Positions 60-44,661 of a stretch of 44,661 bases of DNA are shown here, piece by piece. This stretch comes from Escherichia phage HH3. The notes under the pieces are model-generated. The model did not search any database. It was not told the origin of the DNA and saw only the letters and a list, made by a program, of their open reading frames with translations. Each line of letters starts with the position of its first letter. The first letter of the stretch is position 1. The stretch lies in sequence record PP759150. One strand, given 5' to 3'. The position numbers were made by a program, and so were the translations under genes.

Positions 60-190
60 GCAACCAATGCGAGTTGCAGAATGGTGGGTGAGAAATGCAG
101 TTTGCGGACACAGCAGATAGCGATCGACTTTTTCATGCGCGTGATTAATATTGGTTGCATTCGTGCCCGCACCCTGCTAGATTGGTTGCA
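60..190. promoter_or_regulatory. Cluster of three copies of the 9-mer TGCAACCAA / TTGGTTGCA upstream of the first plus-strand ORF
   Basis: gcaaccaa at 60-67, ttggttgca at 151-159 and 182-190; the last is followed by caccaacacgagg and the ATG at 212. Confidence 0.5.
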
Positions 191-511: not shown

Positions 512-781
512 ATGGACCGTAGACGAGCTAAACAGCTTTCGTGGCATATTCCACTGCATTGCATACGAATATGGGCGCAGAATGCGGTTGAGGGCGATTC
601 TGTGTTCTGGTGCTATCGCGACGATGTGAAGCCATTAACGCAGACACGCTACTTGCACCAGTTCGCAGCAAAACACGATTTCAGGGTGCGGACTTCCTTG
701 CAACCAATGGGAATCCGTATTACATTACGCCGGAAGCCCGCCGTTGAGCGGGTAGGCAAACACTGGAGACTGAGCAAATGA
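512..781 (+). CDS. hypothetical protein (89 aa)
   Basis: ORF with RBS aagggg 7 nt upstream of ATG; contains one in-frame copy of the gcaaccaa motif at 700-707. Confidence 0.5.
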   Translation: MDRRRAKQLSWHIPLHCIRIWAQNAVEGDSVFWCYRDDVKPLTQTRYLHQFAAKHDFRVRTSLQPMGIRITLRRKPAVERVGKHWRLSK

Positions 782-3286: not shown

Positions 3287-3327
3287 ATTGCTTGACTTGC
3301 AACCAACCAACAAGAGGAGTAATCAAG

Positions 3328-11085: not shown

Positions 11086-11115
11086 GGTGTGCAACCAATA
11101 TAAAGCAACCAACAT
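11086..11115. promoter_or_regulatory. Divergent control region with two TTGGTTGC copies (minus-sense reading TTGGTTGCTTTATATTGGTTGCACACCAACAGAG)
   Basis: Motif copies at 11089-11100 and 11106-11113 between minus gene 10747-11061 and plus scaffold gene. Confidence 0.45.
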
Positions 11116-16682: not shown

Positions 16683-17013
16683 TGGAGCGGGACAGGCGGG
16701 ACGTCCCGCTTTGTCCCGATCTGTCCCGCCCTCTAAAAACTGCATACCTATTCAGTTTTACTGCATAACCTGAAAGCGGGACGGCGGGACGTCCCGATCT
16801 GCCCCACCCCCCCAAAATGTGAATGGTTATGCAGTTTTCGTGCATAAAACAAACGGGACAAAAAGCGGGACAGAATGGGGCGGGACAAAGCGGGACGTCC
16901 CGCCGTCCCGCTCAGTGCTGCCGCGGGTTTCAGCCGATCGGGACAGGCGGGACAAAGCCCAGTCTTTCAGACTAGACGGGGGTCATTGGCCCCCCTCGTC
17001 TGAGACTGCATAA
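16683..17013. repeat. Repeat-dense non-coding element, copy A: about 17 CGGGAC(A) units in both orientations, three GCGGGACGTCCCGC palindromes, CTGCATAA repeats, terminal long hairpin (16960-17008)
   Basis: Read directly; last 187 bp (16827-17013) are a diverged copy of 44475-44661. Confidence 0.85.
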
Positions 17014-26578: not shown

Positions 26579-26658
26579 GGTATCATCTCCTGTATTGGGT
26601 TGAGTTTTAGTATTACACCGCTCAACCAAGAATGCAACCAATTTAAGAGGATTCAGCT

Positions 26659-30191: not shown

Positions 30192-30213
30192 TGCAACCAA
30201 CCTATTGGTTGCA
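30192..30213. promoter_or_regulatory. Perfect palindrome TGCAACCAA-ccta-TTGGTTGCA (full dyad of the recurrent 9-mer)
   Basis: Read directly; overlaps the last codons of the HAD-like gene and precedes the next minus gene; followed by hairpin 30156-30178. Confidence 0.7.
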
Positions 30214-32091: not shown

Positions 32092-32110
32092 TCAATATAA
32101 TGCAACCAAT

Positions 32111-32434
32111 TTACGCATAAAAGTTAGGGTCGCGCGCTACGTCTACCAGATACAGGTTACTAATGCGGTTGCCGTAGTGGCCTGGTGTGCGCTGACGGCA
32201 CACTACGGCATAGCCTGGAGGGATTGTATTGCCAGTCTCAATAATCCACGCCACGCGTGCGCCAGACAGCGTCTTACCGTTGTATTCGATACGTGTTCCG
32301 CCATCGGCAGTGTTAAGGTTGCCAATCTTGCAGCCTGTGGACTTCAGGCGAATGACGCCGGTCTTGCTGTCGTATGAAAAAAGCTGATTGGTCATTGCCA
32401 CTGAAAAGTCGATGGCGTCGAATGTAGTATTCAT
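32111..32434 (-). CDS. HNH_3-like small protein (107 aa), possibly degenerate homing-endonuclease-like
   Basis: Pattern YNGKTLSGARVAWIIETGNTIPPGYAV...PGHYGNRISNLYLV resembles HNH_3 endonucleases but the canonical DH-NG core is altered. Confidence 0.45.
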   Translation of the reverse strand: MNTTFDAIDFSVAMTNQLFSYDSKTGVIRLKSTGCKIGNLNTADGGTRIEYNGKTLSGARVAWIIETGNTIPPGYAVVCRQRTPGHYGNRISNLYLVDVARDPNFYA

Positions 32435-33141
32435 TTTAAATTTTCCTCGTTAACCGCTATCGCGAAGCCGCGCGGGGTGAGTGAGCGGATTAATTTTGTA
32501 CGAGCGGATTTACCACCGAGGCGACTATACTGTTTCGAGTACCCTTTTTCAACGAAAACAGGTTTCTTCTCTGGCATACGGAAGCCGTTGCCGGTCCATA
32601 AGCAGGTCAGCTTCGGATATGAATCGCGGGCGTTGATGTATTCAGGGAATAACGGGTGTACGTCATCCTCTGGCAAATAGCCGCCATACTCCCACGGGTC
32701 AAACGAGTGGTCCGGCTTACGCCATTGAGTGGAGAGCACGCTGCGCGGATTCTCAATCATATATGGCACTTCGAAGAAATCGCCCAGGTAAGCGGCGATC
32801 TTCGCGGTGCGCACCGCCTTAAGCTGGAAGGCAGGGTCGCGGGCGCGTTTGCGCGGGAAAGCTGGCGCGCCGCTCACCGCCAGATCAGTACACGGCGGGA
32901 ATGCATAGATAATATCCGGCGTGCCGAAGTCGCCATTCATCGCGCGGTCCACGAAGTCCAGGTCAATAAACTCATTGCGATATCGGATACCGCGACCATA
33001 GATACGGTAATCAAGGTAAGACCCGTGATCGGCTTCGGAGTAGTTGAAGCAATAACACTTATGCCCCATCTCGGCAGCACGCTCAATCATCAAGCCGCTG
33101 CCGTCAAACAATGACCAGATTGTCATTTTAGCAATAGTCAT
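32431..33141 (-). CDS. compact DNA C5-cytosine methyltransferase-like protein (236 aa) with variant motifs
   Basis: Motifs in C5-MTase order: I SLFDGSG, IV FPPCTD (PC-T instead of PC-Q), VI ENP (instead of ENV), VIII-like QWRKP; about 100 aa shorter than typical C5 MTases. Confidence 0.55.
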   Translation of the reverse strand: MTIAKMTIWSLFDGSGLMIERAAEMGHKCYCFNYSEADHGSYLDYRIYGRGIRYRNEFIDLDFVDRAMNGDFGTPDIIYAFPPCTDLAVSGAPAFPRKRARDPAFQLKAVRTAKIAAYLGDFFEVPYMIENPRSVLSTQWRKPDHSFDPWEYGGYLPEDDVHPLFPEYINARDSYPKLTCLWTGNGFRMPEKKPVFVEKGYSKQYSRLGGKSARTKLIRSLTPRGFAIAVNEENLK

Positions 33142-35042: not shown

Positions 35043-35321
35043 TTAAGCGACCAATTCAGCAACCAATAAATCACAGTCGGCTATGTTGTCTATGACGCGA
35101 ACGTCCGCACCGCGGCGGGCCATTCGCTCATGTTCTCGTACCTGGTGCGGCTTCGGTTTGCCACCGGGGCGCTTCACCTCGACGAACACTATTCTGCCGT
35201 TGATGATGATTATCAGGTCTGGCGCACCTGCTCGCCCCTCCCACGCCACTTTGCGGCAGAATCCGCCGACGGCTTTCACCCGTCTCATCAAGTGACTTTG
35301 AATCTTGCCTTCGGGTGTCAT
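35043..35321 (-). CDS. VRR-NUC domain nuclease (92 aa)
   Basis: GAPDLIII ... VFVEVKRPGGKPKPHQ motif; start overlaps the Pol I stop. Confidence 0.7.
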   Translation of the reverse strand: MTPEGKIQSHLMRRVKAVGGFCRKVAWEGRAGAPDLIIIINGRIVFVEVKRPGGKPKPHQVREHERMARRGADVRVIDNIADCDLLVAELVA

Positions 35322-37612
35322 TATTTTCTGTACCTGTACATAATGTCGCCTTCCGCGGCAAGCGGGAAGCCTTTCGCCCAAACCGGCAGGTCGCACATCA
35401 GCGCGCACAACTCCTCAGTTGTGTAGTCGTCGGTATCCGGCACTTCGGTTATCAGTTCATCGTGTACGGACAGTACGATCTCATATCCCGCAGCTTCAAC
35501 GCCAGGCATGGACCATGCGAGGATATCGCGACACAGCGCCTGCACGATGTTCTCTGTCAGTTTGCCGCCGTAGGTGTACTGGGATCCCCACTGGCGCGTC
35601 GTCTGATTCTCACCCTGGTATTTAATGCGGGTGCTGGTGCGTTTCTTGCCGGTGTCGTCGTCGATCTCGGTCGTCACTGACAGCGCAATGCCTGGATAAC
35701 TCATAATACGCCCAGACGGCAACTCAATTTTCAACCACCACCCCGCGGCGTTCGGGTCGTCGCGTTCCTCGTCGAAGGTTGGGTCATGCTTCGCCTTCGT
35801 GCGGACTATCTTGAGCGCTTTCTTTCCATCCGGGCGAACGTTCGCTCCAGCCCAGTACGCTTTGCCCGGATTGCGGATTGCACACAACACCGCGTCCTCA
35901 AGCTCGGCCCAAAAAGCTACCGTCTTCGGGTGAGCCTCGCGCCACATGCGTTTAATCGCATCACACGTAAGCCATACGTTTTTCGGCAGTATGTAAGTCG
36001 GACGCTCGTCCTTCTTGCCCGGCTTCGGCGGGCGCTTAGCTTCGTTAATGCGGGCATACTCATAACCACGTTTCGCCGCGGCCCAAATGTGATCGGGGAA
36101 TGTGCCCTTCATCACGTCAGCCATCGCATAAAGGTCGAGGCCCAGGTTTTTAGCGAACTGCAAGAACGCCGCCACGCCGCCGCCATAGCCTAGTCCCAAC
36201 TCACACGCCTTACCGATCTGGCGTAAGTCTTTGCGGTTGGCTTTAATGTATTCCGGATCGAGGCCGAACATCTTACCGGCAGTCTCACAATAAATATCGC
36301 GACCGGCCCTAAACACCATTAGCGCGGTTTTCTCTCCAGCGATCCAGGCGAGGCCACGCCCTTCCACGTTGGAGTAGTCCGCCACGACAAACTTCTTACC
36401 CTTCGCCGGAATAATGCACCCGCGAACAGTCGAGGCTGTTAGCTTCGATATGTCATACGCCCAGTGCGCTGTCCCGCGTAACAGGGAGTTGATGCCGTTG
36501 GTGAGCATGTGCGACCGGACCCAAAAAGAAACGTCGCTCTCGCCTTCACGGCGTTTAATCTTCCCTTCGTGGTCATCACTATACTCGCCGCGTGCCAGGT
36601 TTTGCGGCTGGAAGCCTTTACCAGCCCAGCGCAGCGTGCGCTTTGCCCCACCATACTGAAGACAACCACGGCGGCGACCATCGGAAGACAGGCCATTTAC
36701 GAGCGGATTGTACTTAGTCGATGCCGTTGATGATGCCCCGAGGCGCATCTCGATAAGCACTTTGCCTTCGTCTGGGAAGTCCGGGTCTTCCAGCAGGTCG
36801 TTAAGTGTGGACTTCTGCGCGTTGTGGATCGTGAACGCAGGCGCGAGGTCGCGCAGCGCGGGCAAGAAGTCATTGCCGGTCAGCTTACCGCCGAAGCGCT
36901 CCCAGGCTTCTTCCTTCAATTCTTCTTTATGCGCCTGTACCGCTTTGATCGCGGCGTTCGCCAGATCAACGTCCACGTAGAAGCCGCGGTCGTTGATCAA
37001 CTGGTCAATAAGCAGGATTTCGTCTTCCTTCGGCGTGTTGCCCCAGTCCGGTATGCGCCAATAGACTTCCCTCATAGCGATGATATCCAACGCGGCATAG
37101 CGAAGGAATTTAGCCCACTCCTCTGGGTGCGTCTCGCGCGTGTAGCGGCGGATTTTGTAGGTCTTAGGGGTAGGCTTACAGAATCGTTTGATCAGCGCCT
37201 TGCCCGCCTTATCCTTCGCGTGCTCTGCATCAACGCCCAACACCTGACACTGCATATCGAGGCCGCCCGGCAACGCGTGCCGAAAGGCCATAATCATGGT
37301 GTCTTCGATCTGGCACACGGGGAGGTCAATGCCCCACTTCTCGCGAATAACCAGGCGGTCAAACAGGAGGCCGTTAGCCATCACGATTTTTGCTTTCTTG
37401 CGGGATACCCGGCGGAGCGCCTTGCGCAGTTCACGCGGCATTGTGGGGGACTCGGTGCAATCCCACGTTTGCACGCGGCCCTCGTCGATGGCGTATGTGC
37501 AAATCATAATCTCAGTAGTTGGGTGTTCCGCGTAGGCGTATGCGCCCACTTTCTTCAGATCCACCCCGCTAAATGTCTCGGTATCGAGAAACAGGCGTTC
37601 AAAGTCTTTCAT
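35321..37612 (-). CDS. DNA polymerase I (family A) with 3'-5' exonuclease domain, 763 aa
   Basis: Exo I motif FLDTET near N-terminus; C-terminal motif C region SVHDELI; size. Confidence 0.9.
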   Translation of the reverse strand: MKDFERLFLDTETFSGVDLKKVGAYAYAEHPTTEIMICTYAIDEGRVQTWDCTESPTMPRELRKALRRVSRKKAKIVMANGLLFDRLVIREKWGIDLPVCQIEDTMIMAFRHALPGGLDMQCQVLGVDAEHAKDKAGKALIKRFCKPTPKTYKIRRYTRETHPEEWAKFLRYAALDIIAMREVYWRIPDWGNTPKEDEILLIDQLINDRGFYVDVDLANAAIKAVQAHKEELKEEAWERFGGKLTGNDFLPALRDLAPAFTIHNAQKSTLNDLLEDPDFPDEGKVLIEMRLGASSTASTKYNPLVNGLSSDGRRRGCLQYGGAKRTLRWAGKGFQPQNLARGEYSDDHEGKIKRREGESDVSFWVRSHMLTNGINSLLRGTAHWAYDISKLTASTVRGCIIPAKGKKFVVADYSNVEGRGLAWIAGEKTALMVFRAGRDIYCETAGKMFGLDPEYIKANRKDLRQIGKACELGLGYGGGVAAFLQFAKNLGLDLYAMADVMKGTFPDHIWAAAKRGYEYARINEAKRPPKPGKKDERPTYILPKNVWLTCDAIKRMWREAHPKTVAFWAELEDAVLCAIRNPGKAYWAGANVRPDGKKALKIVRTKAKHDPTFDEERDDPNAAGWWLKIELPSGRIMSYPGIALSVTTEIDDDTGKKRTSTRIKYQGENQTTRQWGSQYTYGGKLTENIVQALCRDILAWSMPGVEAAGYEIVLSVHDELITEVPDTDDYTTEELCALMCDLPVWAKGFPLAAEGDIMYRYRK

Positions 37613-40870: not shown

Positions 40871-41386
40871 TTAGTCTTCCAGTTCGAAATAGGTTTCTAC
40901 GATTTCTTTAAGTTCTGTGTGGAAGTCCGCCACGTCGTCGTCTTCCAGTTTAGCGATTGATTTGATCTCGAACGATTCCAGCAGGTCGTCGAATTCGTCG
41001 TTCGCATCGTCATCATCACCGCCTGCGATAATCGCGGCATACTGTTTGATCTCGTCGCGCATCTCCGCCAGCGGATCGGCATCTTTCTCACCTTTGCCTT
41101 TCGCTGGTGCTTTTTTACCCTTCGCCGGTTTTTCGTCTTCGGCGTCATCCTCGTCGTCATCATCCTCTACGACTTCTTTTTTGGCCTTACCTTTCGCCGG
41201 GGCTTTTTTGGTTTTCGCTGGTGCTTCGTCTTCAGCGTCGTCATCTTCTACGACTTCTTTTTTGGCCTTAGACGGCTTTTTATCTTCCTGCTTACCAACG
41301 GCAGCGCCAACGGTTTCATAATGTTTAGCGATGATTTCCAGTGCTACTACGCCGCGAGTGATCAGGTTTACGATTTGCTCAAACAT
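40871..41386 (-). CDS. highly acidic early protein with tandem mixed-charge repeats (171 aa), candidate DNA mimic
   Basis: Start ATG 41386 with RBS ggag; repeats EVVEDDDAEDE...PAKGKAKK; first gene downstream of the leftward early promoter. Confidence 0.55.
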   Translation of the reverse strand: MFEQIVNLITRGVVALEIIAKHYETVGAAVGKQEDKKPSKAKKEVVEDDDAEDEAPAKTKKAPAKGKAKKEVVEDDDDEDDAEDEKPAKGKKAPAKGKGEKDADPLAEMRDEIKQYAAIIAGGDDDDANDEFDDLLESFEIKSIAKLEDDDVADFHTELKEIVETYFELED

Positions 41387-41789
41387 GGTATATCTCCGAT
41401 TGGTTAAGTTTAGGTGTCGACAGTTAACTTCGTCGGTGGCCTTAACATAGTGCCTGGTTGCGCGTTCTCCCTTTCGGGTAGTGGACCAGGTTATATAATC
41501 ACGGTTGGGAATCCTGACACTTCGATCCGGCCCCTGCGTTGCCCCTCTCCAGTTTGCGTCCTGCATCCTGTCGACGGGGTGAATAATAGATTGGTTGCAG
41601 GATAGGTGTCAACAACTAATTTCAAAAAAAAAAGCGCCGAAGCAAAATGCGACGGCGCTAACCAATAAGAGACAATGAGACGGGAGTATTATTACACGCG
41701 TGCGCGCCCGTTTCAATATCCCAAAGGATTTGACACCTTGCGGTTTTAGGTGTAGTTTCGTTGGTCATTAACCAACTGGGGGCAGAGCA
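41387..41789. promoter_or_regulatory. Divergent early control region: leftward promoter (TTGACA at 41612-41607, TATTAT at 41589-41584, 9-mer in the spacer), rightward promoter (TTGACA 41730-41735, TAGTTT 41753-41758), GTCGAC-containing inverted repeats
   Basis: Hexamers read directly; region separates divergently transcribed replication genes. Confidence 0.5.
41623..41659 (-). terminator. rho-independent terminator on the minus strand inside the control region
   Basis: agcgccg-13 nt loop-cggcgct followed by ten T on the minus strand. Confidence 0.6.
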
Positions 41790-42119
41790 ATGAATGTAAA
41801 CGACGCAATCGAAATGTTAACGAAGACTGTTAGCAGTGAAACAAGCCGGTCCTGGGCTTATACCGATGCCGTTGGGGCGGTGTTATTTGAGGTCGAGCGC
41901 CTGCGCAGTGTAGAAAAAGAATTACGCGCCAGGCTGGAATTGCTCAACGGTACGGCGGCGAGCAAGCTACAAAAACACAATGAAGAAATGGAAGAATACA
42001 AAAAACAGGTTATCCGTTTACGTGATGAGGGGAAGTCATGGGCAATGATCGCGGAGTTGACAGGAATTAATCAGAGCACCGTGCGATCCTGGGTACGCAA
42101 TAACAAAACTTCTAAGTAA
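41790..42119 (+). CDS. HTH DNA-binding protein (109 aa), candidate transcription regulator
   Basis: C-terminal helix-turn-helix-like WAMIAELTGINQSTVRSW; first gene of the rightward early operon. Confidence 0.55.
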   Translation: MNVNDAIEMLTKTVSSETSRSWAYTDAVGAVLFEVERLRSVEKELRARLELLNGTAASKLQKHNEEMEEYKKQVIRLRDEGKSWAMIAELTGINQSTVRSWVRNNKTSK

Positions 42120-44394: not shown

Positions 44395-44407
44395 ATTTTG
44401 CGCGCAT

Positions 44408-44468
44408 TGGTTGCCATTTTGAGTGTTTTTAGCCGGTCGCATTGGTTGCCGTGTAGTGTAAATATAAT
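44408..44468 (+). promoter_or_regulatory. Two direct CATTGGTTGCC copies followed by a consensus TATAAT hexamer
   Basis: ttggttgcc at 44408-44416 and 44442-44450, tataat at 44463-44468. Confidence 0.45.
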
Positions 44469-44474
44469 GCATAG

Positions 44475-44661
44475 TTATGCAATAAAACTGCATAAAGTAG
44501 GCGGGACAAAAAGCGGGACAGACCAGGGGCGGGACAAAGCGGGACAGCACCCCGTCCCGCCCCGGATGACGCGGCCTGGAGAGGAGCGGGACAGCGGGAC
44601 AGCACCCCAGTCTTTCAGACTAGACGGGGGTCAACGGCCCCCCTCGTCTGAGACTGCATAA
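44475..44661. repeat. Repeat element copy B: six or more CGGGACA units plus terminal hairpin (44608-44656) ending in CTGCATAA at the window edge
   Basis: Aligns with 16827-17013 over 187 bp; hairpin arms identical and only the loop differs by two bases. Confidence 0.85.

Follow-up and report, generated by a model that had tools for sequence, protein, structure and literature searches.

The divergent early control region of Escherichia phage HH3 holds a well-supported candidate small-RNA gene, predicted to be read on the minus strand from a promoter of its own, here called Ps, into a strong intrinsic terminator. We put at about one half (0.5) the probability that its product is functional, that is, that the locus is a ~56-nt small non-coding RNA gene specific to Dhillonvirus; that the unit is transcribed as predicted seems probable. 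The argument for an independent short minus-strand unit is drawn from a conserved promoter, a freely varying discriminator, a near-invariant 5' segment and compensatory changes in the terminator stem. The window analyzed, 44,661 nt of record PP759150, covers all or nearly all of the genome of a Dhillonvirus, a virulent E. coli siphophage of the HK578-like type, and the 1-kb region round the locus is 93–95% identical to those of SM_S22, PC2, PaulFeyerabend, Sodalis SO-1, and EP23. The unit lies inside a ~400-bp control region (41387–41789) between two early operons, from which a 12-kb replication/recombination operon runs leftward (~41386 to 29007); the genes for a small HTH protein (41790) and for the primase-helicase (42130) run rightward, as do the structural and lysis genes. 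Our search of the literature found no transcriptome or small-RNA report for Dhillonvirus. Earlier annotation is piecemeal, the promoters being marked in one record (HK578) and the terminator in two others (WF5505 and CS16), and in no prior record or paper that we found are promoter and terminator joined into an RNA gene.

Coordinates of the features of the control region of phage HH3 (PP759150), listed from right to left
Feature	Position	Strand	Remarks
Candidate target 2, UAACCAACUGGGGGCAG	41769–41785	+	Ribosome-binding site (RBS) of first rightward gene (ATG 41790)
PR, rightward early promoter, TTGACA-17-TAGTTT	41730–41758	+	Read from sequence
Ps -35 hexamer, TTGAAA	41711–41716	-	Invariant in 23 of 24 distinct relatives; TTGAAC in one
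Ps spacer, CGGGCGCGCACGCGTGT	41694–41710	-	17 nt, G+C-rich; ends in TGn (extended -10)
Ps -10 hexamer, AATAAT	41688–41693	-	Invariant in all relatives
Discriminator, -10 to predicted start	41682–41687	-	5 of 6 columns vary, plus a 1-nt indel
Predicted RNA, GUCUCAUUGUCUCUUAUUGGUUAGCGCCGUCGCAUUUUGCUUCGGCGCUUUUUUUU	41626–41681	-	~56 nt; start placed from promoter geometry and conservation boundary
Single-stranded pyrimidine-rich 5' segment	41660–41681	-	Two GUCUC repeats and UUGGUU segment; candidate pairing region
Terminator hairpin	41633–41659	-	7-bp outer stem, 2x2 internal loop, 3-bp inner stem, UUU loop
T10 tract, terminator U-tail	41624–41633	-	First T closes hairpin stem
PL, leftward early promoter, TTGACA-18-TATTAT	41583–41612	-	11/12 consensus; directly 3' of terminator
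Candidate target 1, UAACCAAUCGGAGAUA	41391–41406	-	RBS of first leftward gene (ATG 41386)

A first, sequence-only reading of this DNA had proposed a promoter with TTGAAA at 41716–41711 and a -10 element, and such a promoter is indeed present: TTGAAA-17-AATAAT matches the sigma-70 consensus at 10 of 12 positions and carries an extended -10 TG in addition. Sites reaching at least 10/12 number three in the 44.7 kb, both strands counted, namely Ps, PL (at 41612), and one at 32552, and Ps alone among them has the extended -10 TG. By rough arithmetic, the chance that one of three such promoters would fall 28 nt 5' of such a terminator is ~0.002; the promoter-terminator arrangement is far from chance. 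Variation in Ps is confined to 5 of its 29 columns, all at low frequency among the 24 distinct relatives. The conservation of its spacer is unusually high for a promoter spacer, and CGGGCGCGCACGCGTGT holds the palindrome CACGCGTG; the spacer is a possible regulator site. PR lies back to back with Ps, with 13 bp between their -35 hexamers, and the HK578 record annotates both PL and the PR homolog as promoters.

The hairpin that follows, AGCGCCG-UC-GCA-UUU-UGC-UU-CGGCGCU, starts 28 nt past the Ps -10 and is G+C-rich, with a U-tract after it on the transcribed strand, as in an intrinsic terminator; its predicted fold energy is -16.2 kcal/mol (z = -3.8), which none of 200 shuffled sequences equals. 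A strong terminator had been claimed here, and both its make-up (7-bp GC stem and T10, 41659–41624) and its position upstream of the leftward early promoter, which comes directly after it, were confirmed. Among the terminator-like hairpins that our genome scan found on either strand, this is the only one with a perfect, uninterrupted T10 tail. The standard terminator scan, which allows loops of 3–8 nt, missed it for that reason, and it was found by a separate scan. On the plus strand, A10 precedes the hairpin and no T-run follows, so that the terminator is one-directional. With a predicted start at G41681 and release ~7–9 U into the tract, near 41626, the RNA would measure ~55–57 nt, a correction to the 60–65 nt estimated previously.

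Across relatives the T-run measures 8–12 T, and the 10 nt between it and the PL -35 are invariant in the 24 distinct sequences. By comparison with the published consensus, T10 together with GAAATTAGTTG (41623–41613) may form a UP-element-like sequence for PL, 11 nt upstream of its -35. The upstream element and the -35 of PL make up an 18-nt sequence, AAATTAGTTGTTGACACC (41605–41622, minus strand), that recurs exactly in six unrelated IMG/VR contigs (eight loci, L052–L059, three of them of the same sequence), and in at least five of the six contigs a -10-like hexamer lies 16–17 nt downstream. In a contig of 163 kb the shared stretch extends to 30 nt, T-run included, and AACCAATC lies just upstream. 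This recurrence suggests that AAATTAGTTGTTGACACC may be a widely shared or convergent strong promoter module.

By using a comparative set of 24 distinct sequences of the region, taken from IMG/VR and from GenBank relatives, we found that the conservation profile shifts exactly at the predicted functional boundaries, the share of variable columns being 17% in Ps, 83% in the discriminator, 5% in the 5' segment, 30% in the hairpin, and ~40% in the flanking genes. The discriminator is the sharpest conservation drop of the region, and the 22-nt 5' segment, in which a single column varies, is the most conserved stretch in ~900 bp. Two variants of this segment were seen, and no others: the LM40P1 clade lacks 1 nt, and Opt212 (locus L043) has gained 5 nt by duplication of TTGTC at the homolog of 41670–41676, which yields a third GUCU repeat. 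In the LM40P1 clade the outer stem is changed from GCGCCG/CGGCGC to UCCCCG/CGGGGA, with two compensatory pairs (GC to UA and GC to CG), and an inner A-U pair becomes G-U, which is tolerated in the minus-strand RNA only. All cells of the hairpin stem (100%) are paired, and the remaining variation falls within the 2x2 internal loop. This level of paired change was reached by 12 of 500 shuffles, and all double stem changes, coming as they do from one clade, may represent one evolutionary event. The earlier claim that no protein gene lies between promoter and terminator agrees with the relatives, across which no conserved ORF is present; a predicted promoter and a predicted terminator thus delimit a unit that is independent and non-coding. 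The claim of a short non-coding transcription unit has strong comparative support, with the qualification that its UUGGUU segment is also a genome-wide DNA motif, to which we return below.

The region was found in 154 phage records, 152 of which cover at least 80% of the query with 84–98% identity, and ~156 records carry a primase at least 80% identical; the unit is present in essentially all of the ~154 Dhillonvirus records. With a covariance model of the unit, each genome gave a single match of ~89 bits (89.4 for the true copy), and no match was found elsewhere. In PaulFeyerabend, a phage of the BASEL collection, the predicted RNA lies at 36670–36725 (minus strand). Searches of Rfam with the whole 44,661-nt window gave no family at gathering thresholds, and round the locus, at E-values up to 10, they returned terminator-driven sub-threshold matches only, the best scoring 20.7 bits against a threshold of 72. 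No homolog of the unit was found in 5,426 E. coli genomes, nor in 185,579 species genomes (596 Gb), in which the 28 exact 17-mer matches, all outside Enterobacteriaceae and of at most 28.6 bits, are fewer than our own estimate of the number expected by chance. In IMG/VR, the exact 17-mer and the Ps pattern each matched Dhillonvirus contigs only, apart from chance matches in coding sequences or unrelated contigs. The metagenome scan gave only four loci, one of them (L060, OQVL01056812.1) an assembly chimera with the Illumina adapter ACACTCTTTCCCTACACGACGCTCTTCCGATCT inside the terminator hairpin.

The nearest outgroup that we compared comprises four Guernseyvirinae control regions (Tsm2, VSiP, TS33, and phiEap-2; primase 43–46% identical), which share the gene order, with a nuclease operon leftward and a small DNA-binding protein and helicase-primase rightward. 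In these phages, the leftward and rightward promoters stand directly back to back, without a terminator or short unit between them, whereas Dhillonvirus has ~118 bp extra between the PL and PR -35 hexamers, holding the terminator, the RNA body, and Ps. Because the outgroup control regions lack the unit, it is a Dhillonvirus-specific addition. Ps sits where the ancestral leftward promoter stood.

Our preferred reading is that host RNA polymerase (sigma-70) would fire Ps leftward from G41681, back to back with PR, and that transcription would stop at the strong intrinsic terminator abutting PL. The RNA would be built, like enterobacterial Hfq-binding sRNAs, of an unstructured 5' segment (22–23 nt, pyrimidine-rich, GUCUCAUUGUCUCUUAUUGGUUA), one hairpin, and a long U-tail. 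The Hfq-binding module is composed of a U-rich stretch before the hairpin and a tail of 8 or more U; in the predicted RNA, the U-rich UUAUUGGUUA adjoins the 5' side of the hairpin and a tail of U8 to U12 is present in all relatives, so that the predicted transcript would match that module. It would act in trans early in infection, UCUC/UUGGUUA pairing with ribosome-binding regions and lowering translation, and its best in-phage targets would be the first genes of both divergent early operons, host mRNAs being equally possible. The sequence features, their pattern of conservation, and the compensatory changes of the stem are shown, whereas the transcription start, the 3' end, Hfq binding, action in trans, and the targets are points that we infer. 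Hfq-dependent sRNAs (e.g., DicF; a lambda-encoded sRNA, bioRxiv 10.1101/2024.10.31.621285) have in common with it a stand-alone sigma-70 promoter, a length of 50–100 nt, a short unstructured 5' pairing segment, a single terminator hairpin, a U-rich flank, and 8 or more U. Unlike them, the Dhillonvirus unit lies in a virulent siphophage, between its two early promoters, and its predicted RNA has no sequence or covariance-model relation to any Rfam family.

The unit had also been likened to lambda oop, and in its layout the comparison stands, because both are short promoter-to-terminator transcripts (77 nt in the case of oop) of a phage control region, relying on host polymerase. It does not extend to sequence, in which there is no similarity, or to antisense action: oop acts antisense to the cII 3' end, whereas the strand opposite the Dhillonvirus unit carries neither a gene nor a predicted transcript. 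We thus rejected a cis-antisense role of the oop type, as there is no conserved plus-strand ORF and no plus-strand promoter-like site upstream, PR starting to the right of the RNA gene.

Target 1 and the RNA gene are inverted repeats of each other over 14 nt (86% complementary; UCUCUUAUUGGUUA of the RNA against UAACCAAUCGGAGA), and the duplex predicted for target 1 (-17.2 kcal/mol) is equaled by 0.05% of shuffled RNAs and ranks 20th among 96 start regions. Target 2 would pair with the same UCUCUUAUUGGUUA, G-U pairs included, at -18.3 kcal/mol (equaled by 1.2% of shuffled RNAs; 7th of 96). None of 2000 shuffled RNAs reached both energies. The ranks are only 20th and 7th because an RNA resembling an anti-Shine-Dalgarno sequence suits many start regions, and in the genome-wide duplex scan G+C-rich chance partners dominate. 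In the LM40P1 clade, where both the RNA and the leftward site are changed, the cognate duplex (-12.7 kcal/mol) is no better than the cross pairings (-13.1 and -14.8 kcal/mol), which therefore give no signal of co-evolution; in HK578-type phages, the target 2 site is missing, a different gene being present there, yet the RNA is unchanged. Given these ranks, the absence of co-evolution, the loss of the HK578-type site, and the existence of AACCAAT as a DNA motif, we do not consider pairing established: the predicted pairing with the two flanking early-gene RBSs is suggestive but statistically weak, and the specific phage targets named here are doubtful. A shared feedback brake, in which UCUCUUAUUGGUUA would pair with UAACCAA(U/C) plus Shine-Dalgarno ahead of the first genes of both early operons, is a speculative proposal to which we give little credence. 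The P1 c4 and P4 CI immunity RNAs offer a parallel, as sRNAs located upstream of an operon and complementary to the RBS or leader of its first gene. These are processed from the operon transcript, belong to temperate elements, and have proven pairing, whereas the Dhillonvirus RNA would have its own promoter and terminator and a pairing that is predicted, without co-variation support.

AACCAAT, the complement of AUUGGUU in the RNA, occurs at 19 sites in the genome against 5.7 expected, a number reached by none of 100 shuffles. The over-represented motif, (T)GCAACCAAT/C, is found mostly in intergenic positions and in both orientations, examples being 60–69 (+), 149–158 (-), 180–189 (-), 700–709 (+), 3299–3308 (+), 11091–11114 (+), 26634–26643 (+), 30193–30212 (a palindrome), 32102–32111 (+), 35059–35068 (+), 41589–41598 (-), 44405–44414 (-), and 44440–44449 (-). 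Some copies are TTGGT-N5-ACCAA palindromes, including one over the PR start (41761–41775). A phage regulator or a replication protein probably binds this motif. As AACCAAT is over-represented genome-wide and has an invariant copy in the PL spacer, which is not transcribed, some of the conservation could reflect constraint on the DNA, and the "ttggtt" of the predicted RNA may be as much a half-site for a protein on the DNA as a pairing segment of the RNA. Repeats of another kind occur in two paralogous non-coding blocks (16687–17012 and 44501–44661), one before the tape-measure gene and the other after the primase-helicase gene. Each holds clusters of GCGGGACA repeats in both orientations, then the same ~55-nt sequence, CAGTCTTTCAGACTAGACGGGGGTCA..GGCCCCCCTCGTCTGAGACTGCATAA, with a hairpin; these blocks could be iterons or late control sites.

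The arrangement may also be read as a device acting at the level of transcription, with a functionless RNA, in which the terminator would shield the newer, stronger PL from transcripts of Ps, the old leftward promoter; the T-run would double as the PL UP element, and terminating polymerases could occlude PL or recycle onto it. This is close to the insulation that the sequence-only reading had offered as an alternative, and the UP-element-like T-run, the fit of T10 and GAAATTAGTTG to the consensus ahead of the PL -35 being a comparison of ours, speaks for it, as do the invariant 10 nt that follow the T-run, the outgroup promoters standing back to back exactly at the Ps and PR positions without a terminator, and the presence of AAATTAGTTGTTGACACC at the head of promoter-like sites in unrelated viral contigs. 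However, such a device needs only a promoter and a terminator, which leaves the near-invariant 22-nt transcribed segment beside 6 freely varying nt unexplained, and a redundant ancestral promoter should decay, but Ps is nearly invariant; we regard this explanation as a minor, though real, possibility. Ps and the terminator could instead belong to an antitermination leader like lambda PR'-6S RNA-tR', a factor being loaded at Ps to permit read-through into the 12-kb leftward operon. The resemblance includes a strong, constitutive-looking promoter, a short terminated transcript upstream of a long operon, and an unusually conserved spacer, the position at which Q binds in lambda. A further terminator-like site lies beyond the first leftward gene (40862–40843), and CUCUUA in the predicted RNA resembles the boxA core (6/8). 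On the other hand, PL, a strong promoter belonging to the operon itself, stands between the terminator and the operon, so that read-through is unnecessary for expression; the RNA is 56 nt long, that of lambda 194 nt; the hairpin has the form of a canonical terminator, not of a boxB-like loop; and no Pfam family of the Q or N type was found in the 20 hypothetical proteins of PaulFeyerabend that we scanned, nor is one annotated in that phage. A novel antitermination factor is possible, but an antitermination leader is decidedly unlikely.

Alternatively, the conserved positions may form a cluster of protein-binding DNA sites, for a phage regulator or for a replication origin by the primase-helicase gene, any RNA being incidental; its members would be the AACCAAT half-site at 41660–41666, the CACGCGTG palindrome of the Ps spacer, and the GAGAC repeats. 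The excess of AACCAAT described above agrees with this, most copies reading TGCAACCAAT/C and lying in intergenic DNA, in both orientations and with some palindromes, as do TAACCAA, which occurs five times in the genome, three of them within this 420-bp region, and the invariance of the copy in the untranscribed PL spacer, where the spacer bases 5' of the copy vary. The copy in the RNA gene, however, reads CTAACCAAT, unlike the dispersed copies (TGCAACCAAT), and lacks a partner with which to form a palindrome; the LM40P1 clade drops a base in it while keeping the PL and PR copies intact; and the swap of the rightward HTH gene in HK578-type phages leaves the region unchanged. As DNA sites would also leave the compensatory changes, the strand-specific G-U of the hairpin, and the T-run unexplained, we find this explanation rather improbable. 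A small protein is the least credible product, with hardly any probability in our estimate, whether encoded by the 36-aa ORF at 41658–41768 (minus strand) or by a 24-codon plus-strand ORF from ATG 41676. Some GenBank records do annotate a hypothetical protein here, for example PaulFeyerabend gp49 (the 36-aa ORF), but this ORF is frame-shifted internally across relatives (…WDIETGAHACNNTP… vs …WILKRARTRVIIIP…), shortened in some genomes (7, 15, or 24 codons) and lengthened in others (48–51), has no start in HK578-type and LM40P1 genomes, and would begin upstream of Ps, overlapping PR; the 24-codon ORF is broken by the same indels. Both ORFs being disrupted by indels or stops in relatives, the protein-coding reading was rejected.

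In HK578-type phages (HK578 and CHD5UKE2; loci L015, L018, and L028), the 109-aa HTH gene and its leader are swapped for a different gene of 142–149 aa, the region exchanged being the homolog of 41753–42116, which includes the TTGGT-N5-ACCAA palindrome, and the mosaic joint is the -10 of PR. Many Dhillonvirus records carry the label "DNA recombination nuclease inhibitor gamma" in the neighborhood of 40874–41386 (-) and 41790–42116 (+), and in every record in which we read coordinates it stands on the 109-aa HTH gene; because the Pfam matches of this protein are to HTH families only, the Gam label appears to be an error passed on from record to record. The first leftward gene encodes a very acidic protein of 171 aa, annotated as hypothetical, that belongs to phrog_3127 (function unknown) and matches no Pfam family. 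The leader of the leftward operon contains a ~155-nt segment (41408–41565, minus strand) that is present in about two thirds of Dhillonviruses, almost invariant wherever it is carried, and cleanly missing from L001, L007, L009, L012, WF5505, CHD5UKE2, and LM40P1. A second copy of the PL core bounds it. Its predicted fold is long, with one covarying pair (AU in 7, UA in 2, and CG in 1) in the stem CCNGG...CCN'GG, and the segment could be either a small insertion or a leader RNA with a structure of its own.

These data indicate that the control region has changed relative to that of Guernseyvirinae, in that a terminator, an RNA body, and a UP-element promoter now lie between promoters that stood back to back. 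If the feedback brake were true, translation of the acidic and HTH proteins would be tied to a third, back-to-back promoter. If the candidate RNA is real, current annotations need correcting, both for the spurious 36-aa protein and for the promoter and terminator annotated separately. Regulatory RNAs have hardly been explored in virulent coliphages; the phage sRNAs characterized so far are mostly those of lambda or of prophages. Dhillonviruses, which are common in sewage and the gut, are used in therapy studies and are represented in the BASEL collection, so that the predicted RNA would be testable in E. coli K-12.
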